DNA of 64,000 nt from Candidatus Vogelbacteria bacterium (GCA_021414225.1 JAIOOX010000002.1:161118-225117); one strand, 5' to 3'. Numbered from the stretch's first letter, positions 24,051 to 46,445 are shown. Notes: generated from the letters alone by a model not told the origin. Numbers and translations: made by a program.

Positions 24051-24431
24051 ATGCAAAACATTAATAATCCTCGACACAAACTGGTCCCGCAACAGGTTCA
24101 AGAATTGCAAAGGCTTTTCGAAGATGAGGGGTGGAGACTTAATTGGCTCTCAGTCTTCTTCAAGGTTCACCGCAGCTCGATAATCTTTCACATTCGATTC
24201 AATGGCTGGGTCCGGCGCATGAAAGTGCTCAGACACATGCCAAAGGAGATTGCTGAAATATATCGCTTGAGAAGAAAACAGAAATACGAGAATAAATTCA
24301 GAGGGTCCTACGATTACATCAAGCGGTCGGCCGAGCAGAACAAGATGAACAGTTGCGTACATATCAGATGGGTCAAACGATGCAGTCTCTGTGGCGAAAT
24401 CTTAGGATCAGATGCCACACATAATCATTAA
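24051..24431 (+). CDS. hypothetical phage protein
   Basis: ORF only. Cys/His-containing C-terminus but no clear HNH motif. Confidence 0.35.
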   Translation: MQNINNPRHKLVPQQVQELQRLFEDEGWRLNWLSVFFKVHRSSIIFHIRFNGWVRRMKVLRHMPKEIAEIYRLRRKQKYENKFRGSYDYIKRSAEQNKMNSCVHIRWVKRCSLCGEILGSDATHNH

Positions 24432-24442: not shown

Positions 24443-24850
24443 ATGAAAAAAGAAAAAATAAAAACAGAAGTAAAACATACACCAAACCCCATCAACCTAT
24501 CAGCTCGCTTTCTGACCGCCCGCCCTGATCTCGTGAGTGCGTGGATTATCGGGGCTCATAGTCTCATTGGAATATTTAAGTCTGAGCATAAAGAAGCATT
24601 AATCGCATATCTTGAGACGGTCCAAGGAGAATTCTTTGCGGCACTCCGCCATCATTGGGAGAAGAAATATCCGGATCAGAAGCTCACCTATACCTTCGGC
24701 ACGATTTGTCGAAATCGAAAAGGTGTAGAACGACTCGTCATCGGTATTCAGCCGACAGAAAAGAAAAAACCAACCTACGAGTACATTGATGACGACGGCA
24801 AGGTCGGCGCCTGCAACGAGTCGAGCATGGTGGGCTGGATGGAGAAATAA
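24443..24850 (+). CDS. hypothetical phage protein
   Basis: ORF only. Confidence 0.35.
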   Translation: MKKEKIKTEVKHTPNPINLSARFLTARPDLVSAWIIGAHSLIGIFKSEHKEALIAYLETVQGEFFAALRHHWEKKYPDQKLTYTFGTICRNRKGVERLVIGIQPTEKKKPTYEYIDDDGKVGACNESSMVGWMEK

Positions 24851-27067: not shown

Positions 27068-27072
27068 AGAAA

Positions 27073-27100
27073 AAGTAATGCACGCAATTTTGCAATTTTC
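27073..27100 (+). promoter_or_regulatory. conserved dyad motif copy 1 (AAGTAATGCACGCAATTTTGCAATTTTC), upstream of portal
   Basis: One of four near-identical copies at heads of virion/lysis gene blocks. ATGGCA start 22 nt downstream. Confidence 0.6.
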
Positions 27101-27121
27101 GAGCATCATACTGAACTCAAT

Positions 27122-29131
27122 ATGGCATTAGCCCACTATAAAAAACGAGACACACTTTCATCTCAATCTCTCAAAGAGATCGACTACTCGTATCGATACA
27201 AGAAAGCTCGAATGAGCTCGTGGAACAAGAACGAGGACATGATGAATCCTGATCGGGTAAGTCCCTCGGTTGTTTCTCCATATGGAGGCAATACTTTCCA
27301 ACAAGCGGGTGATACCCGAGCTCAAGTGCCTCTCTACAAGATGCACGGATTCGTACACACGATTCTCTCGAAGATAGATAGTCCTCTCACATTCAAATAC
27401 ATAAAAGGTGAGTCAGCAGATTTGAAGAAGGCAAAGCTGATGAACGCAATCAAGGAGAAAGATTCTAAAACTGGAAGGTGGAATTTCAAAGACTTGATGG
27501 GTAAGCGAGATGCTGCTATTTATGGCAGAACAATTTATCTGTACATGACTCGAAATGATAAGGGAGCGTACAAGAGTCTCCTCAATCTCATTGATCCAAA
27601 AGACTTTCTCATCGACCCTGACGTAGGTGGTCTATGCACTGAAGAAGAAGACGGGAGCGGAGTTGAGAAAGCCCTGTATCTCGGATGGTGGAATACAAAG
27701 CTCACTCGTGCTCAGCTTACACAAGGAGTCAAGGATGGAATTTATTACAAAAAGGTTGTCGAGGATTTGCTTGAGGGTGGAGGTAACAATACAACCAAAA
27801 CTCAACAGGATATCGATAAGGACAATCGAAAGATGAGCGGAGCTCCTCGAGAGCGTTTCAAGAATGAGAATCAATTTATTTTCTATACATGGATTACTAC
27901 TGACGAGAACGATGATCGGTATTACTTGGTTCTGACTCCATCTGGTGATTGTATTCGGTGTGAGAAATGGGTAGACATACGAAAGAGCGGAAAATATCCG
28001 ATATGGACATGGGCAGCTTTCCCCGACCCTCGAGAATTCTGGACACCCTCATACTGTGATTACGCACGGGGCATCTTTATGGCTCAGGAAAAGAGTATCA
28101 ATCAGTCACTTGATAACTCAGAGCAAATCAATCGTCCTCAAACTGCGGTAAACGTAGACTATGTACGTAATCTTGCTCAAGTTAGATATCGAAAGGACGG
28201 CTACATCGAGATTGAGGGAAATATTGATGTGAACAAAGTGCTTCAAACACGTCAGACTCCGCCGATTCAAGGTCCGTTCATGGTGTATGACAAACTAGAA
28301 ACGATTGTCGAGGGTGAAAGCGGTGTGACGGCAGGGGTTAAAGGAGTAGGAAATGAAGATACTCTAGGAATTTACGAAGGAAATATTGCACAAGCAGGTG
28401 ATCGTTTCGGACTCTTGAATAAGAGCTATGCCGAAGGCTACTATCGATTTGCAGTTCTACATAAAGAGGGAGTGATGCAAGATTTGAAGAAGAAAACAGC
28501 TGTCCAGATTCTCGGTCCTATGGGTCTTGAGATAGAAATGGTCACATCTCGAGATTTAAAGCCGTACCAAAACGATTATGACATTCTTGTTGAATCAAGT
28601 AGCGCTGAAGCACAAAACAATGCAGCAGAAAGCAAGAATAAAATAACATTTCTCAGTGAATACAAAGGAGATCAAACAATCAATCAGAAAGTTTTATTTG
28701 AAACACAAGCGGCTATCGCAGGCGTTGATGATGACACAGTTAAAAGACTACTCGATACGAGTGATTACGATGCAATCGAAGTCGTAGCACAAGCAGATGA
28801 AGCATTCCAACTAATTATTGGTGGTCATAAAGCTCCTCTCTACAAAGATGCAAACACTGCATTCCTACAAAGACTCCATGATCTATCCGATAAATACGAC
28901 CATGAGCTTACTTCCGAACAACACAGTGCCGTATTTGCCTACATCGAGCAAATAACACCAGTTGTAGAGCAGAACGCAGCACGTTCGGTTGTAGCTCAGG
29001 CAGCAAAGCAAGGCATGATCAGCGGTCCTGGTGGTGCGGTCGATATTACACCCACAGACGACAAGATTGATCCTGCCATGCGAGGTGATCCTGTGGCAGA
29101 AGCGGCAAAAACCGCAACATTAACAAAATAA
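27122..29131 (+). CDS. putative portal protein (assigned by position and size)
   Basis: 669 aa directly after terL. No motif verified. Confidence 0.45.
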   Translation: MALAHYKKRDTLSSQSLKEIDYSYRYKKARMSSWNKNEDMMNPDRVSPSVVSPYGGNTFQQAGDTRAQVPLYKMHGFVHTILSKIDSPLTFKYIKGESADLKKAKLMNAIKEKDSKTGRWNFKDLMGKRDAAIYGRTIYLYMTRNDKGAYKSLLNLIDPKDFLIDPDVGGLCTEEEDGSGVEKALYLGWWNTKLTRAQLTQGVKDGIYYKKVVEDLLEGGGNNTTKTQQDIDKDNRKMSGAPRERFKNENQFIFYTWITTDENDDRYYLVLTPSGDCIRCEKWVDIRKSGKYPIWTWAAFPDPREFWTPSYCDYARGIFMAQEKSINQSLDNSEQINRPQTAVNVDYVRNLAQVRYRKDGYIEIEGNIDVNKVLQTRQTPPIQGPFMVYDKLETIVEGESGVTAGVKGVGNEDTLGIYEGNIAQAGDRFGLLNKSYAEGYYRFAVLHKEGVMQDLKKKTAVQILGPMGLEIEMVTSRDLKPYQNDYDILVESSSAEAQNNAAESKNKITFLSEYKGDQTINQKVLFETQAAIAGVDDDTVKRLLDTSDYDAIEVVAQADEAFQLIIGGHKAPLYKDANTAFLQRLHDLSDKYDHELTSEQHSAVFAYIEQITPVVEQNAARSVVAQAAKQGMISGPGGAVDITPTDDKIDPAMRGDPVAEAAKTATLTK

Positions 29132-29144
29132 TCAATATAAATTT

Positions 29145-29456
29145 ATGTCTGAATCAAACAATGTGAAATTCGTAGAAGCTAATGGCAAGTGGTTATGGAA
29201 GCGATATAGCGCCGAAGGGTCGGTTATTTCTCGCAGCCAATTATTCGATACCGAAAGAGAAGCTCGAGAGGATTATCAGGCACATGGGAATGAGGGACAA
29301 ACCACAGCTCCGTCACAGCCAGATAACACTCAAGCATCAGAGCCTACAGCTCCAAGTGTCGACTCACCTAATGATGTCGGCAATGTTGCTCCTGAGGGAG
29401 AAGTAAATGCCGGTACAGCATCTCCAGCAGACTCAGAAGCTGGCCTGGTATCGTAA
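29145..29456 (+). CDS. hypothetical acidic protein
   Basis: ORF only. Overlaps the next ORF by 50 nt. Confidence 0.3.
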   Translation: MSESNNVKFVEANGKWLWKRYSAEGSVISRSQLFDTEREAREDYQAHGNEGQTTAPSQPDNTQASEPTAPSVDSPNDVGNVAPEGEVNAGTASPADSEAGLVS

Positions 29457-29856
29457 CGAGATACGATCTCATTGTCATACCATGTTGACCTTCACCTACA
29501 AAGTCAAAAAGCGAGCAAAGGATAAGGGTGATTTTCGTATCACCAAGCACGGACAGATGGCAGAGTTTTCTTTGCGTGAACTTAATCGAAATATTGAGCA
29601 AGTTCGCAAGCAGGCAAGGGAAATGGAAGCCAATGCAAAGCTTCAAGAAGCTCTTGCAGAGAATATTCGCAGAACGAACCCTGATCTTGTTTCGTACATG
29701 AAGAAACTATCACCTAAAAAGCGTCATGCACTCATCATGCTTTCCATTCAGGAAAACAAAGCAAAGCAGTTCAAGGATCAGGAAAAAGAGTCGAAACGAA
29801 TCCTGCGAATGATTATTAGCGAGGACAAGGAAGTCCGTAACCAATTAAAGCTATGA
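29407..29856 (+). CDS. hypothetical phage protein (charged, helical)
   Basis: ORF only. Confidence 0.35.
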   Translation: MPVQHLQQTQKLAWYRNEIRSHCHTMLTFTYKVKKRAKDKGDFRITKHGQMAEFSLRELNRNIEQVRKQAREMEANAKLQEALAENIRRTNPDLVSYMKKLSPKKRHALIMLSIQENKAKQFKDQEKESKRILRMIISEDKEVRNQLKL

Positions 29857-30248
29857 GCGAAACACCAGAAGAAAAAGAACCTGAGCTTACTGGTCCGCAC
29901 AATCCTGATGAGGAGGTTGATCCGGAGAAGCAAGCAGCTGAAGACGCAGAGATCGAAGAACTCAACGATGCGATTGATGTAACAAGCGACCTAGTCTCAT
30001 GGTCTAAGACTCCTGCCGGTAAGGACACCATAGAGCGTCTTCAAACTGAGTCTCGTAAGGCGATGAATGAGCTCTTTGCAGTTCTCCATGACAGCCCTGA
30101 GCTCGGAAAGCTTATATCTGTCGTCGCTCGTTTCGAAGCGTCAGTACAGATGCTTAGGCGATTCATTGGAGCAGATGAAGACTTGGATACTTTGCTAGAT
30201 GAACTCGCAAGGAAGCGTCCGAGTGCGGCAGCTAAGGTTGCTAAGTAA
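29853..30248 (+). CDS. hypothetical acidic phage protein
   Basis: ORF only. ATGA overlap with the previous ORF. Confidence 0.4.
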   Translation: MSETPEEKEPELTGPHNPDEEVDPEKQAAEDAEIEELNDAIDVTSDLVSWSKTPAGKDTIERLQTESRKAMNELFAVLHDSPELGKLISVVARFEASVQMLRRFIGADEDLDTLLDELARKRPSAAAKVAK

Positions 30249-30283
30249 AGAAAAGATAAAGAAAAAGTAAAATATTTATCAAG

Positions 30284-30316
30284 AAATAATCATCGGGAAA
30301 CCGGTGATTTTTCTTT
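30284..30316 (+). terminator. hairpin plus T-run terminator ahead of the scaffold-capsid unit
   Basis: AATCATCGGG-AAA-CCGGTGATT then TTTTCTTTGT. Confidence 0.45.
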
Positions 30317-30320
30317 GTAA

Positions 30321-30348
30321 AAGTAATGCACGCAATTTTGTATTTTTC
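30321..30348 (+). promoter_or_regulatory. conserved dyad motif copy 2 (AAGTAATGCACGCAATTTTGTATTTTTC)
   Basis: Same motif as 27073. Sits after a terminator and ahead of the scaffold-like gene. Confidence 0.6.
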
Positions 30349-30409
30349 ATACATCAAACTATCAGCATAGAGGGGCCAACCTCTTATTAATAAAAAGGTT
30401 AATGCGCTA

Positions 30410-31333
30410 ATGCTCTGCGTTCCACAATCGAGCATCAATGGGGCGAAACCATCGAAATATAAAACGTATATGCCAAAACCACATCAGGAAGCAGCACCCG
30501 CTGACGATAAGTCAGGAAAAGCTGCAGGGGAATCTCAGCCAGCCGATAAGGGTGGCAAGAAAGATTCAGACAACCCTTCAAATGGTCAATCGATTGCACA
30601 GGTTGCAGGGGGTGAAAACTCCAAGTCTAGCGATTCTAAGGACGGCAAGCCAAAAGATGGCGATGAGAGGGACAGTCTCATAGTCGACCTCAAGAAAGAG
30701 AATCGTGAGATGAAAAAGATGATCCGTGACGAGGTTATTCCTACCATTCGTGATTTGCAACAGCAGATCAAGAAAGGAGGTACAAGTGCCGACGATGCTC
30801 TCGATGAGCTAGACGCACTCGCCAAAGAGTGGGAACTCGAGCCGAAATTTGTCCAGAAGCTCGCAAGTATTCTCCTCACCAAGTCTAAGAAGCAATTCGA
30901 AGACGAGTACCTTTCAGACATCAAAGACATTAAGAAAAAGACTGAAGCGCAGTCCAAGGAAATCTCCAACGCTCAAATCACTTCAGCAATCTCGAAAGAG
31001 TTTGATCGAGTGATTGCTGATAACCCTGATCTTGCCAAGGTCGCCAAAAAAGAAGCCGTCAAGAAATACATCATGTCGAGTGAGGAAAACCTCGGTCGCA
31101 CGATGGAAGATATTCTCGAGGAACTTTATGGCGACTCTGAAAAGCCAGAACCAGGCATGGAAGGCTACAGCTCTCAGGGAAGCAATCATCAGAAGGAGCC
31201 GGACTACAAGGCTCCAAGCGAGGAAGACCACAAGCGCATCGCTCAGTCTCGTGAAAAGGGTGGTCAGGAATTTGATAAGTACCAAGAAGGTCTTATTGAC
31301 CGACTGACTCATCGATCACGTCATCGAAAGTAA
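30410..31333 (+). CDS. putative scaffolding protein (charged, coiled-coil rich)
   Basis: Lys/Glu/Asp-rich helical composition, directly upstream of the capsid-like gene. Confidence 0.4.
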   Translation: MLCVPQSSINGAKPSKYKTYMPKPHQEAAPADDKSGKAAGESQPADKGGKKDSDNPSNGQSIAQVAGGENSKSSDSKDGKPKDGDERDSLIVDLKKENREMKKMIRDEVIPTIRDLQQQIKKGGTSADDALDELDALAKEWELEPKFVQKLASILLTKSKKQFEDEYLSDIKDIKKKTEAQSKEISNAQITSAISKEFDRVIADNPDLAKVAKKEAVKKYIMSSEENLGRTMEDILEELYGDSEKPEPGMEGYSSQGSNHQKEPDYKAPSEEDHKRIAQSREKGGQEFDKYQEGLIDRLTHRSRHRK

Positions 31334-31378
31334 TTGATTTTTGGAAGGGTAAATTTATTCACTTAATTTTATCCAACC

Positions 31379-32581
31379 ATGTTAGCAGTATTCAAAGAAC
31401 AGTTCGATAACGCTTATCAAGCGGTATTCGACAAAGTGCTCGTGGCAATGGAGATTGCCAACACGCGCCTCGAGAAGAAACTCGAGTACGGAGCATCCGT
31501 AAAACGTGTGAAGTATTCTCTCGCACCGATTCGTGTGCGTAATATCACGATAGGTGTAAACCGAACCATTGACTCGCTCAATGACTCCGGTGAGACCCTC
31601 TTGGTCAATAAGAACAAGGGTGCAGACTTCCGAGTCTCGAAGAAAGAAATGATTCAGGCAGGCCCACTGAATCCGGCAGAGACTATCGGTGCAGAGGTAG
31701 CAAAGAAGCTCTCTCGTTACATCGATGCCGACGTGTTCGCTCAGGTAAAGAATGCCCTTCAGACATTCGATACCGGAGACTTGACCACGATGAGTTCGAA
31801 CGGAACGGCCATCGTACTTTCTACTACGAATATCCCTCAGCTTCTAGCTCAGGGTCGTGCGAAGCTCAGAAAGGCGAATCAAGACCTTACGAGTCTTGCC
31901 TTGGTTCTCGACAGCTACGGAGGCTCGATTATCGAGCAGTACGTGATGTCAAAGAACATCGACCTTGCTGCAGCAGCGTTCAAGAATGGTTACGCCGGTC
32001 CTGTGGGTGGCGCCGAGTTGTACCTTTCCGAGAACCTTCTCGCAGAAGCGATTATCACAATGGCTGCAAACCCTTCAAACGGACAGACATTCTCGATCAA
32101 TGGCTTCATTTACACCTTCGTAACTTCAATCGGCGCTACGCCAGGTAATGTCTTGATTGAAGCTGGTGTCGATGCGACCCGAGATAACCTGATTGATGCG
32201 ATTCATCAGGCGACCGGTACTGCCGGATCGAAGTACATCGCATGGACTGATGTTGATCCTGGATACGATCAGTCCAACTGGGTCGACTTGCAGCTTGCTG
32301 CAGTCGATAACGATGGTGCGGACACCATCACCATTACCGGAACTGGTTCAGGTCGACTTGTATTCGGCGGAAACGCTACGTACACAGTCACCAAGAACCT
32401 CGTACACGCTTACTACGGTAAGAAGGGTGCGATCGACGTGGTTATTCAAGACCTCGCCGAGATGGAAATGGTTGATGACCCATACCAGCGTGCAAAGATC
32501 ATCCGAGCGGACGCTATCTACGGCATCTTCACGTTTGCCGATGGAAAGCCTCAGTTCCTCGACGTTCTTCTCCAGTCGTAA
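31379..32581 (+). CDS. putative major capsid protein (assigned by position)
   Basis: 400 aa following the scaffold-like gene. A structured RNA element follows it. Confidence 0.4.
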   Translation: MLAVFKEQFDNAYQAVFDKVLVAMEIANTRLEKKLEYGASVKRVKYSLAPIRVRNITIGVNRTIDSLNDSGETLLVNKNKGADFRVSKKEMIQAGPLNPAETIGAEVAKKLSRYIDADVFAQVKNALQTFDTGDLTTMSSNGTAIVLSTTNIPQLLAQGRAKLRKANQDLTSLALVLDSYGGSIIEQYVMSKNIDLAAAAFKNGYAGPVGGAELYLSENLLAEAIITMAANPSNGQTFSINGFIYTFVTSIGATPGNVLIEAGVDATRDNLIDAIHQATGTAGSKYIAWTDVDPGYDQSNWVDLQLAAVDNDGADTITITGTGSGRLVFGGNATYTVTKNLVHAYYGKKGAIDVVIQDLAEMEMVDDPYQRAKIIRADAIYGIFTFADGKPQFLDVLLQS

Positions 32582-32588
32582 ATGCTGC

Positions 32589-32653
32589 ACTGACCCGAGC
32601 GAAAGTTCGGGCTCAGTGTCAGGCGCAGGGGCTAATCCCTGCCTCTGGCACTG
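32589..32653 (+). terminator. compound hairpin element after the capsid gene (GNRA-capped stem plus imperfect 40-nt palindrome)
   Basis: CCCGAGC-GAAA-GTTCGGG, then CAGTGTCAGGCGCAGGGGCTAATCCCTGCCTCTGGCACTG. No strong T-run. Confidence 0.35.
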
Positions 32654-32667
32654 AGAAATAAACAATT

Positions 32668-33297
32668 ATGGCAACACCACTTACCGGACAACAAATTATT
32701 GAAAGATTCGAGTTGTATACCGATGATACGACTGATCTCTCGAGTGATGAGGAGCTTATTCTTGCGAATGACAAGCTTCGTTTGGTCTACATGGAACAGC
32801 CTTGGGAATTTTTGCGTAGGAAAAAGAGCGGTGTTGTTGAAAATGATGGAAAGATCACACTCCCAACAGATTTTGATGAGCTTATGGAGAATTTCAGTGA
32901 TGACCCAACTATTGGAGAACCATTAATGAAAGTTGTTTACGTGGGAGGTCAAAAATCTCCTTACCTCGTAGTGCCAATGGGTCAGAGAAATGCAAATAAT
33001 TTCAGCAATGTATGTTGGATTGATCCATCAGATGGAAAAATAAACTTTTCTCAGAATCCAGGTACTGGTGCAGCTTACGAATTCGACTATAAGACTAGCC
33101 CTGATGATATTGCTGTCGGCACATCTCCTAAATTACCTGCCGAGTATCATCCAATGATCATATTCGCAATGCTTATCGATGAAGATATTATCAAAAAATC
33201 AGAAAAAGCACGTAGCAACATGCAGGACAATTCAGTGCAGTATCAGCGATACATGAAGAACCTAAAACTGCGAGATGCTCGCTTTAAACTTTCATAA
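32668..33297 (+). CDS. hypothetical virion protein
   Basis: ORF only, in the structural block. Confidence 0.4.
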   Translation: MATPLTGQQIIERFELYTDDTTDLSSDEELILANDKLRLVYMEQPWEFLRRKKSGVVENDGKITLPTDFDELMENFSDDPTIGEPLMKVVYVGGQKSPYLVVPMGQRNANNFSNVCWIDPSDGKINFSQNPGTGAAYEFDYKTSPDDIAVGTSPKLPAEYHPMIIFAMLIDEDIIKKSEKARSNMQDNSVQYQRYMKNLKLRDARFKLS

Positions 33298-33300
33298 TTT

Positions 33301-35202
33301 ATGGCAGACCATGAGATCAAAAAATTTGGATCAGGAGTACACAATCGTGAAGACAATGAAGATACGCCGAAAGACAGTGCGAAGGATTCTTTAAACTGGC
33401 TCACAATTGATGGACGTATCGAACTTGCTCGTGGGAAGGTCACAGTAGGTCCCGAGGGTCCGGCAGGAACGTGTCCCGCAATTCATGTCGGTTACAAAGC
33501 AAATGGTACAGGTGTTCTTTGGAGAAAAGTAGCGACAGCAATTCAATATTTCACTGGCTTGGTGTGGATTGATGTAGTTACTGGACTCAATCCGAATGAT
33601 ATCTACGTTTTTACAAACTATAGCTCGCTCACCGGAGCATGGACGTTTGCTGGTGGTCCTGGGGGACTTTTCAAGTTTGCCAATGCAAATCCAACAAGCT
33701 ACATCCAACTCTACACGACAACAGATTTTTTCTGCGGATTTCCGCTGATTGATAAAGCTCGAATGTACCTATGGGGTATTGCCAAAGATACAACTGCACT
33801 TTATCGAAGTTATATCGATGTTCAACGTGATGGCACAAGCTTTACTCAAATTTCAAATGAGAATGCTGCGAGCGGAAACGGATCACAAACAGTATTCTCA
33901 GGAACACTTTTATTCAAATCTGGTCAACCAAAACGAAACTGTGGACTTGTAACTATTAAGTGTACCGATGGCGGTGGGGAAATATTCACTGATGACAAAA
34001 ACGGAAACCTGAAGGGAAGTGCTGGTGGTATCGGAACTATAAATTACATTACAGGTGTATGGGGTGTGACCTTTGTCACTGTGCCCTCAGCATCAGCAAA
34101 CAATATCAAAGCTGATTATGTCTGGGAAAACAGTACAGCAAAAGGTGTAGCAGATTTTACATACAGCGCATCACGTCTTGCAGGTGAGGGCGATGTGATC
34201 CGACAAGATGAAGGAGGTGATGCAATCCAACAACTCGTGATCGGTATTGATGGAAACTATTACTCACTCAAAAAGCAAAGTGCGTATCAGCACAAATATA
34301 CTGATGACGATAAGACTTTTAATAACCAAGTAGTTCGAAGAAATATCGGAGTCCTTACTCGAAAGAGCTCAGTCACTACTGGTCGAGGTGTTGTCTTTAT
34401 AAACACAGCCAATCCGGATAGACCACAGCTCACAGTCCTTGAAAAGAACCCTCTTGGTGATGACATTCTCGCAACCGAACTCATTCCACATTTTGCATGG
34501 GAGAAATTTGATTACTCAGATGCAGTCATGGAAACCTACGGGCAATTTATTGTTCTTTCATGCAGAGCACAGTCGAGCATCGTAAACGATCGCACGCTTA
34601 TTATTGACATAGTAAAAAATACTGTCGACATTTCAAATTATGGAATGAAAGCTCTCATTAAAGACTCCGGAGTGTTGTATGGCGGAAGTCCGCACACTCA
34701 GACGGTTTATAAAATTCTAAACGGATTCGATGATGACGGCTATGTGATTCAAAATAATTGGGATAGCAAATACGAAACATATGGAGTCCGAAGACTCAAA
34801 AAATATCGACGCTTGCGATACCGAGGCGAGATTGACCCCGCTCAATATGTGGAAGTATACGCAGACTTTGATGGAGCCGGATATTCCCTTATTGGGACAA
34901 TCCGAGGCGATGGAACTTATGTAAATCGTACAAGTCCCTCTAGTGTCGGTACGACCATGATTGGAGATTCGGCCGTTGGAGGTGATGGGTCAGCTCAGGT
35001 GTATCCATATGAGCTTCAGATCAAGGCAATGAAGATTCCGAAGTTCCGAAGGCGCAGCATCCGCTTTATAGCCAAAGGTATCGGCTACGTAAGCGTGATG
35101 GAATCGGTCGATTGGGACATTCTGACCTATGAGGACAAATTACCGAAGGTTTATAGGCAAAAAGAGCATGTAAGTCTCGATGGCAAAAGCGTGAACCAGT
35201 AA
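33301..35202 (+). CDS. hypothetical large virion/tail protein
   Basis: 633 aa, Gly/Thr/Asn-rich, in the structural block. Confidence 0.4.
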   Translation: MADHEIKKFGSGVHNREDNEDTPKDSAKDSLNWLTIDGRIELARGKVTVGPEGPAGTCPAIHVGYKANGTGVLWRKVATAIQYFTGLVWIDVVTGLNPNDIYVFTNYSSLTGAWTFAGGPGGLFKFANANPTSYIQLYTTTDFFCGFPLIDKARMYLWGIAKDTTALYRSYIDVQRDGTSFTQISNENAASGNGSQTVFSGTLLFKSGQPKRNCGLVTIKCTDGGGEIFTDDKNGNLKGSAGGIGTINYITGVWGVTFVTVPSASANNIKADYVWENSTAKGVADFTYSASRLAGEGDVIRQDEGGDAIQQLVIGIDGNYYSLKKQSAYQHKYTDDDKTFNNQVVRRNIGVLTRKSSVTTGRGVVFINTANPDRPQLTVLEKNPLGDDILATELIPHFAWEKFDYSDAVMETYGQFIVLSCRAQSSIVNDRTLIIDIVKNTVDISNYGMKALIKDSGVLYGGSPHTQTVYKILNGFDDDGYVIQNNWDSKYETYGVRRLKKYRRLRYRGEIDPAQYVEVYADFDGAGYSLIGTIRGDGTYVNRTSPSSVGTTMIGDSAVGGDGSAQVYPYELQIKAMKIPKFRRRSIRFIAKGIGYVSVMESVDWDILTYEDKLPKVYRQKEHVSLDGKSVNQ

Positions 35203-35225
35203 TGCACGCAATTTTGCATTTTTTC
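35197..35225 (+). promoter_or_regulatory. conserved dyad motif copy 3 (CAGTAATGCACGCAATTTTGCATTTTTT); overlaps the stop of the preceding gene
   Basis: Perfect AATGCA-N8-TGCATT dyad. ATGGCA start 18 nt downstream. Confidence 0.6.
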
Positions 35226-35242
35226 ACATTCATACTTCTAAC

Positions 35243-36016
35243 ATGGCATCCAAACTCACTAAAGTAGTCGCAAATTTTGAAACTTCCCTTGCCACGAAGC
35301 TTGCTAATGGTGCTGTAGCAGGAGCTCTTACGAGCATCACTGACAAGAACAGTGTAGCTCTGCCGGCAGGCAAATACTGCATGATTGTCGACCGAGGAAC
35401 TGGCGATGAAGAACATCTTTTATTCGATCTCTCCGGCACATCCATAAGCAATATCTTTAGTGTATCGAGACAAGGAGTCCAGACTGCCGGAGTACAGAAT
35501 TTGAATGGACATCGTGCAGGCTCGAAATGCTACCTGACTGATTTCGTAAACCTGAAAGTCATTGTCGACATTTTGAATGGTGACGACTCTCTCGATTCAA
35601 CAAAACCAATTAAGTACGATGCCGACCCAACTTTCAATGATTCAAAACAAGTTGTTTCAAAAGGATATGTAGACACTAATCTTGCTGGTAAAGCATCAAC
35701 AAATGGAAACAATACTTTCTCCGGTAACAATAATTTTATTAATTCTCCAAATATTCCGAATGCTGTAAGCGCATCACAGCCAGTAACACTGTCTCAGCTC
35801 ATGGCCGCTGCGCTTAGTGGTATTCAAGCAGGACTTGAGTATGTGGATGTCGCAATAAATGCAGACGGAAGTGTGAGATCGCTTCATGACAACGTGAATG
35901 GCAAAACATTCGTGTTCGAGTATGACGACAACCGACTACTCCGAAGTATCTACGACGGAGCGAAGAAGTGGTCTATTCGGGATGTCGGAGAGAGGATCGC
36001 AAGCATTATTCATTAA
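35243..36016 (+). CDS. tail fiber-like protein
   Basis: KGYVDTNLAGKASTNGNNTFSGNNNF is a typical tail-fiber repeat signature. Confidence 0.5.
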   Translation: MASKLTKVVANFETSLATKLANGAVAGALTSITDKNSVALPAGKYCMIVDRGTGDEEHLLFDLSGTSISNIFSVSRQGVQTAGVQNLNGHRAGSKCYLTDFVNLKVIVDILNGDDSLDSTKPIKYDADPTFNDSKQVVSKGYVDTNLAGKASTNGNNTFSGNNNFINSPNIPNAVSASQPVTLSQLMAAALSGIQAGLEYVDVAINADGSVRSLHDNVNGKTFVFEYDDNRLLRSIYDGAKKWSIRDVGERIASIIH

Positions 36017-36030
36017 TTTAATTTTTTATC

Positions 36031-38112
36031 ATGATTAATTTACAAGTAGATCGAAGACTGGATAGGACGACGAGCGTAAAGGGACTAAATATTGCTCCGG
36101 TTACTAAATTCGCTGAATGGAGCAGACAGGGAATGGTCCAGTGGCCAGCAGTCAAAGCTCAAGGGAAGCTCACCATCCAAAACCAGCCATCGCCAGGAGA
36201 AACCATTACCATCGGCACAAAGACTTACTCTTTTGTAGCTAGTCTTGTCACCAACACTGACGGACAGATTGTGATCGGTGGAAGCGTTGCGGCAACTCGA
36301 GCAAATATTCTAGCTGCAATCAATCTCTCCGGACTTCCAGGAAGTCAGTACGCATCGGCAACCTCTCTCAATGGTGATGTGGAGGCAACTGCCATCATCG
36401 GCAATGATGTTATTTTCACTTCAAAAGTTGGTGGTACTGCTGGTAACTCAATTGCTACAACATCAACTCTTATAGCTCCGAACGCATTTGATGCGGCAAC
36501 TCTCGGAACATACCGAGCCGGTGCAGCTGCAAGCGATGCAGACTCGATCATTGTCCCTGGATATCGTGGCTGTTTTAACAACTATGTGAACAACCAATAT
36601 AATCCTCGAGAAAATTTCTACATTGGTCGGTCATCATGGGACGGCGATCAAGACCGAGGATTCGGTATTCAAGAAGAACTGATCCGAGAATGTCCTGATC
36701 ATGATTTTCTGATTGCTGCAGGAGCTACTCGTAAGATGTATTCTCCCAATTTCCTTGAGAGAAGAATCAAGACCGTTCGATCTCTGACCCTATATACAAA
36801 ACTTCGTGATATGGAGGCACAGACTCTTTCATCACCCTTTGCAAAAACTACAAGTAATCGTGTCTTTAAAACGATTGAACTCGACTCTACCCGATTCATT
36901 ACTTTTTATCGGCAGCAGGCAGGTACAACTGGTATCTATGCCGTGGTTGGAAATACAAATGCGAACGGAACCATCACATGGGGCGCGCCACTCATCATGT
37001 ACACAGTCGACTGGTACAACGAAAACTTCGATGCGTGCCTCATCAACACTGACAAGGTTCTTATTGCACTTCCAGTTGGTGGATCAAACTACATCAATAC
37101 CGCAGTCGTGACTATTTCAGGTACGGGTATCGCTCTCAACACACCGGTCCAGATTGTGGCGGTAGCACCAAGCTATAAACAGCTCGTAAAAGTTGGAACT
37201 GACAAAGCAATCCTAGCTTTCGAAAACGGGTCTGCCATCAATCTTTACTGTGTTTCAGTATCGGGAACAGTGCCGTCATACGGAACTCTTGCGAGCATAG
37301 CTTCGACCTCAAAACCACTTCTTGCAGCAAATGGCACTGACAAATGCCAGCTGGCATACATCGGAAGCGGTGGATGGTATTCGGCCGTCGTCACAACTTC
37401 AGGAAGCACAATCACTGTTCAGGCAGGTCTCCAAATCAGCTACGACACTAACTACTCTTACCGATATAACCTGCTCTACCAAATTACGACAGACACGTTC
37501 ATGTTTTGGAGTCATTGGGGACAGATTCTATATCAGGGTCGTGATCGATATCGAGCTGGTCTCATCACCGTTTCGGGTACAAACACCACTCTTGCAAATA
37601 GCAACTATCTGCCTGCTGGATGGTGGGGAGATCGCATGTTCTATGTAAAACCAATTGATGCCACGAGCTTCTACATGTACGGCTATGAAAGTAATCGTCT
37701 GACTGGTGCAAAAGTTACGCTCTCTGGAACCACACTTACTTTCCCACAGATGACATACAAAAGCTTCGGTTGGAATGAGAATCAGGGCGACCAGCAAATT
37801 TACAAGTACCAAATCTACAACACCTTTCCTGAAATCGGCGACCCAGTGAACTGTAATGGAAACATGTTCTTTATTTGCACTGACAACAATGCGAATGGAG
37901 CAATATCCATATTCAGTGATAAAGCATTCAGTTTTGACCTATACAACGGCGATGACCTTGTCGGTACATACACAAAAACCGATCTCGGATTCATGCAAAA
38001 AATAAATGTTGACCTTCCAATCTACAAAGAGGAGTTCGGCATAAAAATAAAAAGCAATGACAGCGTTGCTCGAACTGTTCAGGTGGATCACCTGTACTTG
38101 TTAATCGATTAA
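36031..38112 (+). CDS. tail fiber / receptor-binding-like protein
   Basis: 693 aa, Gly/Thr/Ser/Asn-rich beta-type composition, no TM. Confidence 0.45.
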   Translation: MINLQVDRRLDRTTSVKGLNIAPVTKFAEWSRQGMVQWPAVKAQGKLTIQNQPSPGETITIGTKTYSFVASLVTNTDGQIVIGGSVAATRANILAAINLSGLPGSQYASATSLNGDVEATAIIGNDVIFTSKVGGTAGNSIATTSTLIAPNAFDAATLGTYRAGAAASDADSIIVPGYRGCFNNYVNNQYNPRENFYIGRSSWDGDQDRGFGIQEELIRECPDHDFLIAAGATRKMYSPNFLERRIKTVRSLTLYTKLRDMEAQTLSSPFAKTTSNRVFKTIELDSTRFITFYRQQAGTTGIYAVVGNTNANGTITWGAPLIMYTVDWYNENFDACLINTDKVLIALPVGGSNYINTAVVTISGTGIALNTPVQIVAVAPSYKQLVKVGTDKAILAFENGSAINLYCVSVSGTVPSYGTLASIASTSKPLLAANGTDKCQLAYIGSGGWYSAVVTTSGSTITVQAGLQISYDTNYSYRYNLLYQITTDTFMFWSHWGQILYQGRDRYRAGLITVSGTNTTLANSNYLPAGWWGDRMFYVKPIDATSFYMYGYESNRLTGAKVTLSGTTLTFPQMTYKSFGWNENQGDQQIYKYQIYNTFPEIGDPVNCNGNMFFICTDNNANGAISIFSDKAFSFDLYNGDDLVGTYTKTDLGFMQKINVDLPIYKEEFGIKIKSNDSVARTVQVDHLYLLID

Positions 38113-38118
38113 AAATAA

Positions 38119-39708
38119 ATGAATTCTTACACGATACAATACGGCGATACTCTGAGCGGAATCGCATCAAAGACCGGTAAGAGCATCCAAGAACTGATGC
38201 GTCTTAATCCGTCTATTACTGATCCCAACAAAATATATGCTGGGCGTACTTTGTCGTTAGGAACATCAGCACCAGCTCCCGCACCAGCACCGACTCCTGC
38301 AGCAAAACAAACCATCGCTCAAGTAGCAAAGGTATCGGTTCCATCATATGTCGAAGACCCGACCACTACACAGATTGGAAATAGTTATAAAAGCACAGCT
38401 ACATCGCAGATAAATGAGGAAGCCATCAGAGCAGCAACGAGGTCCCGTATTCAAGGTCAAATTGATGCTATAAATGCCGCCGTTCAAGATCAGATTATAA
38501 ACTTCAGAAATACGACAGGAAAGAATCGCCAAGGGCAAAGTTATGCTCTTGCTGCTGCCGGTGGTCGAATCGGTAGTGCAACTGGTGAGTCAGAATTTCA
38601 AACCACTGAAGATTACAATAATCGTGAGGAGCAGACTTATCGTGATGAGGCAAATCTTAAAGTTTCTCAATTGTTTGGTCAGGCAAACAGAGATGCTGAT
38701 ACTGAAATCAAAGCAAGAAAAGAGTCGATTCAGCAGGGAATCGATAAATATTTTGAATTTTTGGATAACCAAGGGAAACGAAAGCGTGACCAAGTGTCGG
38801 CATTCGTCAAAAACATGCTTGCACTCGGCGTTGATCCGACATCCCTTAGTGACTCTGACTTTCAGAAGCTTCAGGATCAATATGGATTCACTAAGGATCA
38901 GCTCTCAACTCTATATAACGATGCCAAAGCAGAAAAAGATCAGACAGCAATCACGACTGAGAAAGCCAAGGTTGATCTCGATAAAGCTAAGAATGATGCA
39001 AACCAATTCAGCCTCAATGAAGGTGATGCTCGTTATGTTTATGATCCAGAAACTGGTACTGCAAAACTTATTGCAGCTCGAGCAAAGACTTATGCACCCA
39101 AGGGTGATGGCTCTGACTCTCCTGGCTCTACTCTCGGATACGATGATCCAAATTACACACTGGATTCAATTCGTAAATCAAAAGGCGGAAGATTCCTTAC
39201 TCAGGGTGAACTCAAACCTATTACGGATATTCAAACAATTGTTGGTCAGACCGAGGCACTTTCAACTCTTATTGGAAGTGTTGATACTGGTCCAATTGTT
39301 GGAATCGTAAAAAGTGCAAATCCATACGATACAAAAGCTCAGCTTATGAAAGCAGAGATCACAGCTATCGTGCCTAAACTTGCTCGAGGTGTGTACGGAG
39401 AAGTAGGTGTGCTCACTGATGCTGATATCGAGAATTATTCTCGCACTATCGCAAGCCTCAAGAATACTGCGGACGTAAACAAAGCAGTGATGGCAATGAC
39501 ACTTGAGATTGCAACTCGATCTCTCGCAAATCAATTGAACTCTCTATCGGCCGGTGGGAGGGATGTCTCTAAATTTGAATCAATCTACACAGGTCTTAAT
39601 GCAAAAGCTTCTTCAATCAAATCTCAACTCGGTGTCGGACAAGCTCCGGCAGCAGAATCTGCAGCTTTCACAAGTAAGAGCGGAAAGACCTATAACCTTC
39701 CAAATTAA
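38119..39708 (+). CDS. LysM-domain virion protein
   Basis: N-terminal YTIQYGDTLSGIASKTGKSIQELMRLNP... IYAGRTLSL is a LysM motif. The rest is helical and charged. Confidence 0.6.
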   Translation: MNSYTIQYGDTLSGIASKTGKSIQELMRLNPSITDPNKIYAGRTLSLGTSAPAPAPAPTPAAKQTIAQVAKVSVPSYVEDPTTTQIGNSYKSTATSQINEEAIRAATRSRIQGQIDAINAAVQDQIINFRNTTGKNRQGQSYALAAAGGRIGSATGESEFQTTEDYNNREEQTYRDEANLKVSQLFGQANRDADTEIKARKESIQQGIDKYFEFLDNQGKRKRDQVSAFVKNMLALGVDPTSLSDSDFQKLQDQYGFTKDQLSTLYNDAKAEKDQTAITTEKAKVDLDKAKNDANQFSLNEGDARYVYDPETGTAKLIAARAKTYAPKGDGSDSPGSTLGYDDPNYTLDSIRKSKGGRFLTQGELKPITDIQTIVGQTEALSTLIGSVDTGPIVGIVKSANPYDTKAQLMKAEITAIVPKLARGVYGEVGVLTDADIENYSRTIASLKNTADVNKAVMAMTLEIATRSLANQLNSLSAGGRDVSKFESIYTGLNAKASSIKSQLGVGQAPAAESAAFTSKSGKTYNLPN

Positions 39709-39711
39709 TTT

Positions 39712-42012
39712 ATGCTCACACGATTACAAATACAAGATAATATCGATGCGTTAGAAGAACAGGGCGCAAGTCATGACGAGATTCAGGAATGGCTCGATAG
39801 TTTACCTAAGCAATCTTCTCAAGCATCGGCTGAAGCTCCGAAGAAAGAGGGAATTTTTAAAAAGATAGGTAAAGCTGTCATTTCAAGTGAGCTTAAATTC
39901 GGAAAAAGCATTGCTGATGCGATGCCATCTTTCGTGCCAGGAAGTGCTGCATGGACGAATAAACAAAACGAACAAATTATGGCAAATCAACATGCCATGA
40001 TGGAAAATCTTCTTGTTCAAAGAAAGAAACTCAAAGCAGAAGGCAAAGATACTTCACGAATCGATGCTGCAATCCAAGATATGCAGGAACAGATGAGTAA
40101 ACCTGCAATTGATATCAACGAGACGAATGCTTCGGTAAATAAAACTGCAAAGCAGGTATTTGGTGAAGGTCTTGGTGTGGCTGCAGATATTCTTTCGGCT
40201 GGATCATACGGCAAAGCTGCTCAAGGCGCACAGAGCGGTAAGTTACTTATCGCAGGAAAAGCCTCAGGCAAGGTCGCAACTGTGCTCGGTAAAGCCGGTA
40301 TCGGAAGCACAGTCTCTCCTGCAGCCGGAGCACTTCCAAGCATCATCGGTGGAGGTACAAAAGCCCAAGCAGCTCTCAAAGGTGCATGGCAGGGTGCAAA
40401 ACAAGGTTTTACCTCTGGTGCTGTTTGGGGCACTGCTCAAGGTGCTACTCGAGCGATGCAGGATAACAAAAGCAATGTCGACATCGCCTCAGATGCTATT
40501 ACTGGTGGCGTGGTCGGAGGTGTGGCGGGTGGAACTGTTGGTGCAATTGTCGGAGGCACAAGCGGATACATCAATCGTCGACGAGAGATTAATCGAATGC
40601 TCAAACCTTCAATGACACCGGATGAGACGATGAACTCTCTCCATAAAGAAATTGCGACTCATGCCGACGAAACATCATTTAAAACTTCTATCGAGAAAGG
40701 CGACCTTACTATTGATCAGGTGTATCAAAAGAATGGTGCTCTTAATCCTGAACTTGCGAAAGGAAGGATAGACGACATCGCAGCAAATCTTGACCTTAAG
40801 GTCCCAGGAGCAGGAGAGAAATACAAAACTCTCATTGATCCAAACAATACGAGCTTCGATGAACTCATTTCAAAAGCTGATGATGTGATCGACGAGAGCA
40901 GGAAGATTCCTGCTGAGGCAATCAAGTACACAGTGAATGCTGAGGGTAAGAAAGTTGTCGATACAAAAGCAAATGAAGCTCTTAAAGCGGGTATTGCAGA
41001 TCAAGATATTGCTTTCATTAAAAATGCTTCTAAAGATGATAAGAAAATATTCGAAAAAGCTATGAAGGTTGCTGAGCAAGCATCAAAAGATAAAACTTAT
41101 GCGCGTCAGCCAGTTGAGCAGGCAGGTAGGGTAATTATCGATCAAGCAAATACTGTAGAAAATGCTCGTATGACAGTCGGGTCTGAGCTTGGCGTAGTCA
41201 GGTCGAAGCTTGCGGCTGTACCAGTGAATGTTACTGATACTGCACAAAACTTTTATGACGATCTATCTGATGCCGGTATCACGATCGGCAATGATGGTCT
41301 CGATTTCTCAAAATCAAAATATGCGAATGTACCAAAGATTCAGAAATTAATTGAAAGTGTTCACCAACGATTAGTGAGCGCAGGGGATACACCGAACGTA
41401 AAAACTGTAGATATGATTCGACAGCAGCTTGGTACTGAAGTTGATCTCGGAACTCTTGAAGGGAATCTCGATAAAAGTGCAAAAAGAATTCTTCAAAAGG
41501 TTTACGGAGGCCTCGGAGAAAATATCACTTACATTGATCCAAAGTATGCAGAGCTCTCTGACCAATATTCAAAACTTTCAAGTGCAATGGATTACTTCCA
41601 ACGAGCACTCGGAAAAGATTTTGATGCAACAAATATTAATTCTTCACTGAAAGCAGGCGAAGTCGGCCGACGAATGCTTGGCAACGCTGCATCACGTCCA
41701 TTAGCTGTAGTTGAAAATATCCAAGACCTTGCTCGAACATACGGATATAACCCAAATGTTGATTCTCGCAGTCAGATTCTTTTTGCAAGCTTCTTAGAAG
41801 ATCTCTTTGGTACGACTCAGACACAGAGTCTTCAAAGCCAGATGACAAAGGGTGTAAACGCAGCTGAGGAAGCTACGGGAGCTCTTACTGATGCCGCCAC
41901 AGGCAATGCCAGCGGTCTTATGTCCAAAGCTCTCCGTAAAGGTATCAATCTGGTCCGAAATATCACCCCAGAACGCCAAATTGAGGCCATACGAGCACTC
42001 ATTACTCCTTAA
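39712..42012 (+). CDS. glycine-rich internal virion / tape-measure-like protein
   Basis: N-terminal coiled coil, then long Gly/Ala/Ser-rich hydrophobic repeats (GGVVGGVAGGTVGAIVGGTSG). Confidence 0.45.
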   Translation: MLTRLQIQDNIDALEEQGASHDEIQEWLDSLPKQSSQASAEAPKKEGIFKKIGKAVISSELKFGKSIADAMPSFVPGSAAWTNKQNEQIMANQHAMMENLLVQRKKLKAEGKDTSRIDAAIQDMQEQMSKPAIDINETNASVNKTAKQVFGEGLGVAADILSAGSYGKAAQGAQSGKLLIAGKASGKVATVLGKAGIGSTVSPAAGALPSIIGGGTKAQAALKGAWQGAKQGFTSGAVWGTAQGATRAMQDNKSNVDIASDAITGGVVGGVAGGTVGAIVGGTSGYINRRREINRMLKPSMTPDETMNSLHKEIATHADETSFKTSIEKGDLTIDQVYQKNGALNPELAKGRIDDIAANLDLKVPGAGEKYKTLIDPNNTSFDELISKADDVIDESRKIPAEAIKYTVNAEGKKVVDTKANEALKAGIADQDIAFIKNASKDDKKIFEKAMKVAEQASKDKTYARQPVEQAGRVIIDQANTVENARMTVGSELGVVRSKLAAVPVNVTDTAQNFYDDLSDAGITIGNDGLDFSKSKYANVPKIQKLIESVHQRLVSAGDTPNVKTVDMIRQQLGTEVDLGTLEGNLDKSAKRILQKVYGGLGENITYIDPKYAELSDQYSKLSSAMDYFQRALGKDFDATNINSSLKAGEVGRRMLGNAASRPLAVVENIQDLARTYGYNPNVDSRSQILFASFLEDLFGTTQTQSLQSQMTKGVNAAEEATGALTDAATGNASGLMSKALRKGINLVRNITPERQIEAIRALITP

Positions 42013-42033
42013 AGTAATGCACCATTTTTTGCC
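42012..42033 (+). promoter_or_regulatory. conserved motif copy 4, degenerate (AAGTAATGCACCATTTTTTGCC), ahead of the lysis genes
   Basis: Shares AAGTAATGCAC and the T-rich tract. ATGGCA 15 nt downstream. Confidence 0.45.
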
Positions 42034-42057
42034 AAAAAGCGGATTTAAGCTTATGGC

Positions 42058-43221: not shown

Positions 43222-43252
43222 GGGCTTATAGAGCAAAATAGAGCCTAAAAAT

Positions 43253-43275
43253 AGCCCTATATAGGGCTGTTTTTA
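43253..43275 (+). terminator. rho-independent terminator closing the lysis cassette
   Basis: AGCCCTAT/ATAGGGCT palindrome followed by GTTTTT. Confidence 0.6.
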
Positions 43276-43331
43276 GTGTATTTATCCACATTGGTGTGGT
43301 TGTTGCCTTATCTAATACTATCTGATACAAT

Positions 43332-44423: not shown

Positions 44424-45310
44424 TGAAAAAGAAAACCACTAAAAACAAATATAGATTCATCGACTTATTCGCAGGAATAGGAGGCTTTCACATTGCTTTC
44501 AATAAAGCTGGGGGTGAATGTGTATTTGCGAGCGAATGGGATGAGAAGGCTAGGAAAACTTATGAAGCGAATCATAGAAAAACAGACCCAGAGCTTTTTG
44601 AATCTGGAAATTTCGCAGGCGACATAACCAAAGTTGATGCAAAGAAAGTTCCAGATCATGAAATTTTAACGGGAGGATTCCCGTGTCAGCCTTTCAGTCA
44701 TGCGGGTTTCAAGAAAGGATTTACCGACTCTCGAGGGACTCTGTTCCACGATGTTGCAAGAATCATAAAAGAAAAGCAACCGAAAGCTTTCTTTCTTGAG
44801 AATGTCAGTCATCTATTCAAACACGATGATGGTAAAACTTTCGCAACTATCAAGAAAATAATCGAGGAAGACCTCGGGTATTCTTTCTATTATAAAATTG
44901 TCAAAGGCACTGACTTCAATGTGCCACAGTTCAGACCGAGATTGTTCATGGTTGGATTCAAGGACAAAAAAATTAATTTTGAATTCCCGAAGCCCGTAAA
45001 ACTGACAAAAACCATGTCGGATATTTGGGGAGGGAAATGTTCCAGAGAAGTGGGATTTACTTTGCGTGTCGGGGGGAGAGGTTCCAAGATAACAGATCGG
45101 AGAAATTGGGACTCTTATATAGTGGACGGAAAAGTCCGAAGACTTTCTCCTGTTGAAGGACGAAGAATGATGGGACTTCCTGAAAGCTTTATTTTTCCTG
45201 TTACCGACATACAGGCGATGAAGCAGTTGGGGAATGCGGTGGTCGTACCAGCCATTACCGCAGTTGCCAAGCAAATAATAAAAACATTGGACGAACATGA
45301 ACGAGCATAA
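44423..45310 (+). CDS. DNA cytosine-5 methyltransferase (M1)
   Basis: FAGIGGFHIAF, GGFPCQPFSHAG, ENVSHL, QFRPRLFMVGF, LGNAVVVP. Start overlaps the Fic stop. Confidence 0.85.
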   Translation: MKKKTTKNKYRFIDLFAGIGGFHIAFNKAGGECVFASEWDEKARKTYEANHRKTDPELFESGNFAGDITKVDAKKVPDHEILTGGFPCQPFSHAGFKKGFTDSRGTLFHDVARIIKEKQPKAFFLENVSHLFKHDDGKTFATIKKIIEEDLGYSFYYKIVKGTDFNVPQFRPRLFMVGFKDKKINFEFPKPVKLTKTMSDIWGGKCSREVGFTLRVGGRGSKITDRRNWDSYIVDGKVRRLSPVEGRRMMGLPESFIFPVTDIQAMKQLGNAVVVPAITAVAKQIIKTLDEHERA

Positions 45311-46400: not shown

Positions 46401-46445
46401 CGACTCGGCAAACTGTCGCCAACAGCGTAAAAAAAGTTTATAATA

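Follow-up and report, generated by a model that had tools for sequence, protein, structure and literature searches.

What is the function of a short DNA motif that recurs at the heads of four late gene blocks of a prophage? The question is raised by a stretch of 64,000 nucleotides (nt) from Candidatus Vogelbacteria bacterium (GCA_021414225.1 JAIOOX010000002.1:161118-225117), here called the window, in which the four copies lie between positions 27,073 and 42,033. An earlier note on this DNA, made from the sequence alone, had proposed that the motif is a late promoter or operator recognised by an element-encoded factor, or else a 5' RNA stem-loop regulating late mRNAs. Our analysis argues for the former. 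The four copies are probably activator-dependent late promoters, designated PL1 to PL4, whose upstream element would be bound by g126, a phage protein of 126 residues with a predicted helix-turn-helix (HTH). A late promoter or operator with an element-encoded factor is supported by the placement of the motif at four gene heads kept in about 60 relatives, by a -10-like hexamer at a fixed position, and by a variable block of DNA that co-varies with the phage HTH protein.

The four copies before late gene blocks are real. The 10-mer core AGTAATGCAC occurs exactly at 27074, 30322, 35198 and 42013 of the window (4 observed versus 0.10 expected; 4 was reached by 0 of 100 shuffles), and the copy at 42013, described earlier as degenerate, is therefore genuine as well. 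The longer 22-mer AAGTAATGCACGCAATTTTGCA is exact at 27073 and carries one mismatch at each of 30321 and 35197, with no match in shuffled sequences. All four copies are on the + strand, where they take up most of four of the largest intergenic gaps in an otherwise compact late gene block: TerL to portal, g131 to scaffold, g633 to g257, and g766 to holin. Among these gene names, TerL, portal (SU10_portal), adaptor (SU10_adaptor) and amidase are supported by hidden Markov models, and scaffold, capsid, tail-fibre block and holin are assigned by position. The stop codon of g633 (TAA, 35200-35202) falls inside the GTAAT of copy 3, as the earlier note had it; the stop codon of g766 (42010-42012), said to overlap copy 4, only abuts it. 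The claim that every copy is followed by an ATGGCA start holds for copies 1 (27122) and 3 (35243) alone. Copy 2 has no ATGGCA downstream, and that of copy 4 (42053) is out of frame with the open reading frame (ORF), which begins with ATGGAT at 42058. The terminator described before copy 2 is present, and relatives keep it with compensatory changes. The dyad symmetry ascribed to the motif, AATGCA-N8-TGCATT, is perfect in copy 3 only; the other copies match at 5/6, 5/6 and 3/6 positions as DNA, and of 28 instances from relatives, 5 have the complete dyad.

A scan of viral contigs for exact matches to the motif of the window gave one true relative, the other 37 matches being single chance hits, so relatives were sought through proteins. 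Collection through the head protein and g126 gave about 60 loci, comprising phages and prophages. The g126 family is present in metagenome-assembled genomes (MAGs) labelled Paceibacterota, Parcubacteria, Patescibacteria and Saccharibacteria, and its closest member (94%) is in a Candidatus Paceibacterota MAG. Wells of the Hainich groundwater, for which metatranscriptomes are reported (PMC12960796), are the source of several related contigs. Searches of 50,697 GenBank phages by megablast with the late region and by tblastn with g126 and portal gave no usable match; at the level of BLAST there is hence no isolated relative. Throughout the roughly 60 loci the signal stands before portal, before scaffold (just after the conserved terminator), before g257 and before the lysis genes. 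Each relative examined carries its own 13-mer two to four times, always on the + strand and only at these orthologous gene heads, not scattered in coding regions. For the fourth site, that of the lysis genes, orthologous exact copies are found in loci L040, L043 and L047.

Alignment of 41 instances on the G of GTAAT (position 0) reveals a composite signal of constant geometry. An A-rich run at -4 to -1 is followed by GTAAT, with A at +2, T at +4 and C at +6 invariant, then by a variable block of 8 nt at +5 to +12, a T-tract at +22 to +25 and a hexamer, cAtACT, at +32 to +37. The second base of the hexamer is A in 39 of 41 instances and its sixth base is T in 36 of 41; the same two positions, with the same bases, are the key ones in a sigma-70 -10 element. 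Further downstream, position +44 is A in 29 of the 41. It is the A of the ATG for g257 and for the lysis gene (holin), the portal ATG lies 3 nt further on, and at the scaffold site a leader that hardly varies among relatives begins with it, while the six bases that precede it vary freely. From this we infer that transcription starts 7 nt after the -10-like hexamer.

A scan for sigma-70 promoters gave no -35/-10 pair at any copy. The -10-like hexamer resembles a canonical one in its A2, its T6 and its distance of about 7 nt from the putative start, and no TTGACA-like -35 lies 16-18 nt upstream. That position is occupied by GCAATT in the window, and the TTGCA(A/T) present near the element would give a spacer of 11 nt to the -10. 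As in activator-dependent late promoters, the box is confined to the four late gene heads in all relatives, and co-variation points to a cognate protein. The copy before the lysis cassette deviates in its variable half (CACCATTT). A Shine-Dalgarno sequence is missing from host and phage genes of the window alike, as it is from host genes in the flanks of the related MAG contigs L072-L086, and 25 of 79 host genes have a TANNNT hexamer 6-8 nt before the ATG, where such hexamers are at their peak. Leaderless starts are therefore the local norm, which suggests that leaderless mRNAs are widespread in this Patescibacteria lineage.

The 8-nt block is the same in all copies within a genome and differs between genomes, with 18 variants, among them GCACGCAA, GCACCTAA, ACACCAAA, GCAACAAA, GCACACAC, TCCTACAG, ACCTACCG, ACCCACAA, TGACACAA, TCTCAATG and CCGTGGTC. 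A genome-specific block is not expected for a site read by an invariant host factor, and a phage-encoded reader was therefore to be expected. The candidate is g126, whose gene lies two genes before the small terminase in all relatives, within an early operon (RepO ... g126-g135-TerS-TerL) and just upstream of the terminase genes. The late activators of many temperate phages, RinA and ArpU for example, are encoded at the same place. The AlphaFold (AF2) model of g126 presents a confident three-helix HTH at residues 13-51 (predicted local distance difference test score about 90 for residues 10-55), two more helices and a C-terminal hairpin; C102, H104, C111 and C114 of the hairpin are invariant, which suggests a zinc ribbon. 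No relative of g126 was found in Pfam, PHROG, NCBIfam or the PDB, and fold and sequence searches gave nothing but generic HTH matches with E > 0.1, examples being KorA, ArdK, IcaR and the DNA-binding domain of DeoR.

Each class of DNA block pairs one-to-one with a distinct sequence of helix 3 of g126. HRSSIIFHIRF, the sequence in the window, accompanies GCACGCAA, (Y/H)K(T/R/K)S... accompanies GCACC-, and DHKS(I/V)RFH accompanies ACCTACCG. The pairing of D(P/C/A)(R/K)A(I/V)RFHAG (e.g. DPRAIRFHAGN in L040) with TCCTACAG is seen on at least 8 distinct contigs, and that of STIHY..RSK with GCACACAC in two divergent lineages. Co-variation was measured as the Mantel correlation between element distance and protein distance over 30 genomes, for the g126 HTH and 11 other phage genes. 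The g126 HTH gave r = 0.72 and the other genes -0.12 to 0.45, including its neighbors g135 (0.10) and TerL (0.18); the partial r of g126 was 0.64-0.73 with portal, TerL or g135 controlled. With one genome per class (n = 20), g126 was again highest at 0.47 (p = 2e-4), with g135 at -0.02 and TerL at 0.08. We consider this support for g126 as the reader of the element good, but not decisive. The same values eliminate g135 as the specificity factor. Since its gene always follows g126, a role as a partner of g126 is possible. It has 105 homologue clusters, all hypothetical, and no match in Pfam, PHROG or NCBIfam; the fold search gave only generic SH3-like matches with E > 0.1.

These findings can be assembled into a mechanism. 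In our proposal g126, an early/middle protein, would be made from the early operon and would bind a two-part element, extending from about -48 to -31 with the upstream element proper at -44 to -31, at each of the four promoters. Host holoenzyme alone should not be able to use PL1-PL4, as they have no -35 and a sub-consensus -10. Bound g126 would recruit or stabilise the host sigma-A RNA polymerase in a class-II or MotA-like manner, replacing the -35 contact, and would so turn on the portal, head, tail and lysis genes together. The PL1 unit would run from portal to g131 and end at the terminator before PL2. The PL2 unit would comprise the leader, scaffold, head protein, a very stable double hairpin, adaptor and g633, and the PL3 unit g257 to g766. 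The PL4 unit would carry the lysis genes to the terminator at 43245; as a speculation, its weaker site may lower or delay their expression. The coordinates of the proposed parts are collected in the table.

Table. Promoters, regulators and RNA features of the late region; all positions are counted from the first letter of the window, and transcription starts are proposed.
Feature	Coordinates	Strand	Description
g126	24051..24431	+	126-aa protein, proposed activator reading the upstream element; N-terminal three-helix HTH, C-terminal C-x-H...C-x2-C zinc-ribbon-like hairpin
g135	24443..24850	+	Follows g126 always; helices and SH3/Tudor-like C-terminal barrel; N-terminal half highly conserved
PL1, portal operon	27071..27121	+	A-rich run and element GTAATGCACGCAAT at 27075-27088; -10-like CATACT at 27107-27112
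PL1 putative start	27119	+	A; portal ATG at 27122, giving a 3-nt leader; layout kept before portal in all relatives
Intrinsic terminator	30288..30309	+	Lies immediately before PL2 and ends portal operon; stem kept in relatives with compensatory changes
PL2, scaffold/capsid operon	30319..30366	+	Element GTAATGCACGCAAT at 30323-30336; -10-like CAAACT at 30355-30360; putative start A at 30367
Scaffold leader RNA	30367..30469	+	Conserved, structured, about 103 nt; begins exactly at the putative +1 of PL2
PL3, g257-g766 block	35195..35242	+	Element at 35199-35212, overlapping g633 stop; -10-like CATACT at 35231-35236
PL3 putative start	35243	+	A of ATG (leaderless)
PL4, lysis cassette	42010..42057	+	Element GTAATGCACCATTT at 42014-42027, variable half degenerate; -10-like TAAGCT at 42046-42051
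PL4 putative start	42058	+	A of ATG (leaderless)
Terminator of late region	43245..43276	+	Strong; closes late region after amidase and g59

Several observations weigh against this model. The geometry of the sites would also fit a repressor operator. At the class level portal and g131 reach a correlation of 0.35, so that the lead of g126 is modest, and the co-variation is partly confounded by shared ancestry and linkage, as shared descent inflates Mantel tests; moreover, g126 varies along its entire length and not in helix 3 alone. In the L083 lineage the spacing is 2 nt longer. The -10-like hexamer has C at its first and fifth positions, unlike the host TATAAT, which could mean another recognition factor, and transcription may instead start near +33, with the T-tract at +22 to +25 as a melting element.

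Some of these points are taken up by the alternatives that keep the motif as a transcription signal. The promoters could be read by a factor other than g126, be it an unrecognised phage sigma-like protein, a 71-aa ORF at the right end of the region or a modified host sigma. The two positions of the hexamer that keep C would be in line with such a factor, as would the GTAATG hexamer common to the late promoters of phage 7-11, the ACT shared with their aCTA box, and a portal and an adaptor that are SU10/phiEco32-like; the 71-aa ORF resembles region 4 of RpoD (E 6e-5). We nevertheless hold this to be unlikely. Between GTAATG and ACT lie 29 nt instead of 16, too long a distance for a single sigma; no conserved phage gene has a match to sigma region 2 or region 4, and searches of the prophage and of the called genes of 7 related loci gave neither a sigma factor nor an RNA polymerase. 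The sigma of phage 7-11 and g126 are unrelated by hhalign, the 71-aa ORF was not found in the loci of the relatives or in the viral collection, and blocks that are lineage-specific and do not occur in host DNA cannot be accounted for by a host factor. Less likely still is that the element is the operator of a prophage repressor, or of g126 acting negatively, which silences four otherwise constitutive late units. Its overlap with the -35 region is typical of operators, the partial inverted repeat AATGCA-N8-TGCATT occurs in the lineage of the window and in several others, and co-variation is silent on the direction of control. Yet the bare promoters should have little activity, as their -10 is sub-consensus and they have no -35; entire classes, TCCTACAG and ACCTACCG among them, do not have the dyad; and g126 is co-transcribed with replication and terminase genes, so that it would be made during lytic growth.

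The remaining alternatives place the motif outside transcription initiation, and we regard both as very improbable. The stem-loop on late mRNAs of the earlier note, or a weak terminator or attenuator in which a hairpin and U-run end the upstream gene, is suggested by copy 3, which can form a 6-bp stem followed by UUUUUU, and by copies that stand right after stop codons. Folding of the four copies gave only -2.3 to -4.3 kcal/mol, with z-scores (+0.97 to -1.06) no better than shuffles. The stem is complete in only the 5 of 28 relative instances given above, shows no consistent compensatory change and is lacking in entire specificity classes; both the conserved -10 and the onset of conserved transcript sequence are downstream of the element, and a real terminator already precedes copy 2. 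In an Rfam scan of 21.8-57 kb (E<=1) nothing matched at the four copies, the LOOT RNA being the only match. The RNA-level reading is thus largely refuted. Similarly, the copies might be recombination sequences at module boundaries, replication iterons of the RepO-like protein or packaging sites, as they lie at the module boundaries of a mosaic phage family, near the gene for a RepO-like winged-helix protein. Boundary sequences that promote exchange should be common to genomes, but the copies are not; iterons cluster at an origin, but the copies are spaced at 3-7 kb; the co-variation of RepO with the element is weak (r 0.26-0.37); and the strict coupling to a -10 hexamer and start codons is left unexplained.

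Other candidates for the factor and for the promoter class were set aside. The earlier note had pointed to two nearby sigma-r4-like proteins, and both do match Sigma70_r4; neither holds up as the factor. The protein encoded at 8119-9171 (+) belongs to the host chromosome; tRNA-synthetase and ribosomal genes surround its gene, which is about 13 kb away from the prophage. Its architecture is unusual in its own right, a sigma-70 region-4 HTH (E 2.6e-13) being fused to a HARE-HTH/RNAP-delta-like domain with no sigma region 2. The other, the 71-aa ORF (53397-53612), adjoins a serine recombinase; searches of the related loci and of the viral collection did not recover it. A sigma-54 promoter (TGGCAC-N5-TTGCW, spacing fixed, GG at -24 and GC at -12 invariant) was rejected, as ATGCACG-N5-TTGCA has TG for GG and is 1 nt too long, and as the classes TCCTACAG and ACCTACCG are without both the GG and the GC dinucleotides. 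A Bacteroidota-type -33/-7 promoter (TTTG / TAnnTTTG), considered in view of the missing Shine-Dalgarno sequences, was likewise dismissed: no TAnnTTTG lies near the start, and the host belongs to the Patescibacteria.

The leader behind PL2 deserves separate mention. It is more conserved than the flanking coding sequence and contains four helices, one of them a pseudoknot candidate, with compensatory changes at 8 pairs, a number reached by 0 of 500 shuffles. RNAalifold missed the covarying helix, and a hand-drawn structure was tested instead. Two of the loops share GGGGC(C/G)AA(A)CC, and no Rfam family matches the leader. We regard it as a candidate for a new cis-regulatory RNA that might act as a translational operator and set the dosage of the head protein. 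The scaffold gene, which gene callers give as 287 aa in relatives, most likely starts at the ATGCCA at 30470, behind the 103-nt leader. Further down the same unit, two stacked hairpins at 32594-32655 (+) stand directly after the stop codon of the 400-aa head protein (-45.4 kcal/mol, z -6.5, no U-run) and may be a 3' stabiliser or a partial terminator that sets the ratio of head to tail mRNA.

The window as a whole is a bacterial chromosome, Paceibacterota-like, with an integrated element flanked by host genes (YchF, LeuRS, YceG, MnmA, AlaRS, S13-S11-S4-RpoA-L17-L13-S9 and GrpE-DnaK-DnaJ). The leucyl-tRNA synthetase (5198-8071, +) has a NUDIX hydrolase domain inserted after its editing domain (residues 394-510). 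The prophage core, at about 22.2-43.3 kb, runs from a RepO-like gene (22228) through a C5 methylase, g126, g135, a DUF5681 small-terminase-like gene, TerL, an SU10-type portal, scaffold, the 400-aa head protein, an SU10-type adaptor, five large proteins and a small membrane protein to an Amidase_2 endolysin. It is best explained as a temperate, SU10/phiEco32-like short-tailed phage of a Paceibacterota (Patescibacteria, or candidate phyla radiation, CPR) bacterium. Most relatives carry an extra gene of about 440 aa, a ParB-N plus N6/N4 methyltransferase, between g135 and the terminase genes (L040, L043, L044, L046, L048 and L049); the prophage of the window lacks it and has the C5 methylase upstream instead, a sign of module shuffling among related phages.

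The region 3' of the core holds cargo and recombinase genes, including Fic, HpaII restriction-modification, a serine recombinase, ParB and a tyrosine integrase. The cargo island at 43332-49748 (+) encodes a Fic/DOC protein with a winged HTH, a pair of M.HpaII-like and R.HpaII proteins, a NUDIX protein, and a second C5 methylase followed by a GHKL-ATPase protein, which are probably defence or addiction genes. AGGAGG occurs only at 51420 and 52203, a hint that the cargo there is of foreign origin. At the right end, a large serine recombinase (53614-54960, -) lies beside the 71-aa ORF and ParB, and a tyrosine integrase is found at 56985-58067 (+); with two different recombinases at this end, 22-58 kb may consist of two elements, adjacent or nested. 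A full-length match to the LOOT RNA (RF03000), scoring 81 bits (gathering score 46.4), is found at 56363-56480 (-), flanked by the ParB/serine-recombinase module and the tyrosine integrase. The ORF 55974-56411, whose start it overlaps, may therefore be spurious. A 9-mer, ATAATGCAC, just upstream of the LOOT RNA was considered as a fifth promoter; its spacing is wrong, and it is treated as a chance match.

To our knowledge, very little is known about the promoters of Patescibacteria hosts, which cannot be grown alone, and in the literature we found no promoter or regulator described for Patescibacteria/CPR viruses. The present work offers a testable promoter model consisting of an element, a -10, a start point and leaderless mRNAs, and a candidate activator whose protein family has no known relatives. 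The roughly 18 matched protein and DNA variants are a set from which a recognition code could be read, and orthogonal regulatory parts may come from the system. Annotators of these phages are helped to mark late operons and true start codons, that of the scaffold gene being an example. A more tentative extension, which we think possible though doubtful, is that g126 founds a new class of -35-replacing activators, in which the zinc-ribbon/helical body would dock RNA polymerase or read the constant AAAGTAAT and a fast-evolving helix would read the 8 nt. If true, the approximately 18 protein/box variants would be ready-made, mutually orthogonal activator-promoter pairs, and this would be the first defined transcription-control system of any CPR virus, working on leaderless mRNAs. 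Even if our reading is wrong, the motif is a well-conserved, lineage-specific signal that any model of these phages must explain.

Activator-dependent late promoters are a classic phage theme; what is new here is the g126 protein family, the constant-plus-variable box and the putatively leaderless late mRNAs in a Patescibacteria prophage family. In class II activation of the CRP/FNR type, centered at -41.5, palindromic sites are bound by dimers. The proposed activator site likewise overlaps the -35 region and would take its place directly before a sigma-70 -10, but the conserved element is asymmetric here and the dyad is restricted to some lineages. The late activators of temperate phages include C and Mor of Mu, the zinc-finger activators Ogr of P2 and Delta of P4, and RinA/ArpU of Gram-positive phages. 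The present system shares with them a small putative activator gene by the packaging genes, a poor or absent -35 and about four late operons with a common upstream box; with Ogr it also shares a zinc-binding module, predicted in g126. In scans with hidden Markov models, g126 has no match to any of these families. Unlike the site of Ogr (a dyad at -55) or that of C (about -43), the box is not such a dyad, and its hypervariable half tracks the protein.

The late promoters of phage 7-11, GTAAtg-N16-aCTA, are read by the phage sigma gp47; those of phiEco32 have a single element, tAATGTAtA, 6-9 nt before the start and depend on the sigma gp36 (PMC8948821). The GTAATG hexamer is identical, which is striking since portal and adaptor are of the same Pfam families; ACT is the core of the aCTA box, and the promoters stand in comparable parts of the genome, before portal, head and tail genes. 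With a gap of 29 nt as against 16, and with no sigma homologue here (hhalign probability of 0.1% for g126 versus gp47), the sharing of GTAATG may well be by chance. The middle promoters of T4, in which a MotA box is combined with a sigma-70 -10 and sigma is appropriated by MotA/AsiA (PMC2988021, PMC6755090), provide the parallel in architecture: a host-type -10 with no -35, a phage-specific box in its place, a small, earlier-made phage DNA-binding protein, and several copies heading one temporal gene class. The MotA box, (a/t)(a/t)(a/t)TGCTTtA, is centered at -30, whereas the box of the window, AAAGTAAT plus N8, would extend from about -44 to -31 with its center near -38. Moreover, searches by sequence and by fold gave no match of g126 to MotA, nor any AsiA-like protein. 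PL1-PL4 also differ from T4 middle promoters in their two-part element with a lineage-specific half and in heading transcripts that are predicted to be leaderless.

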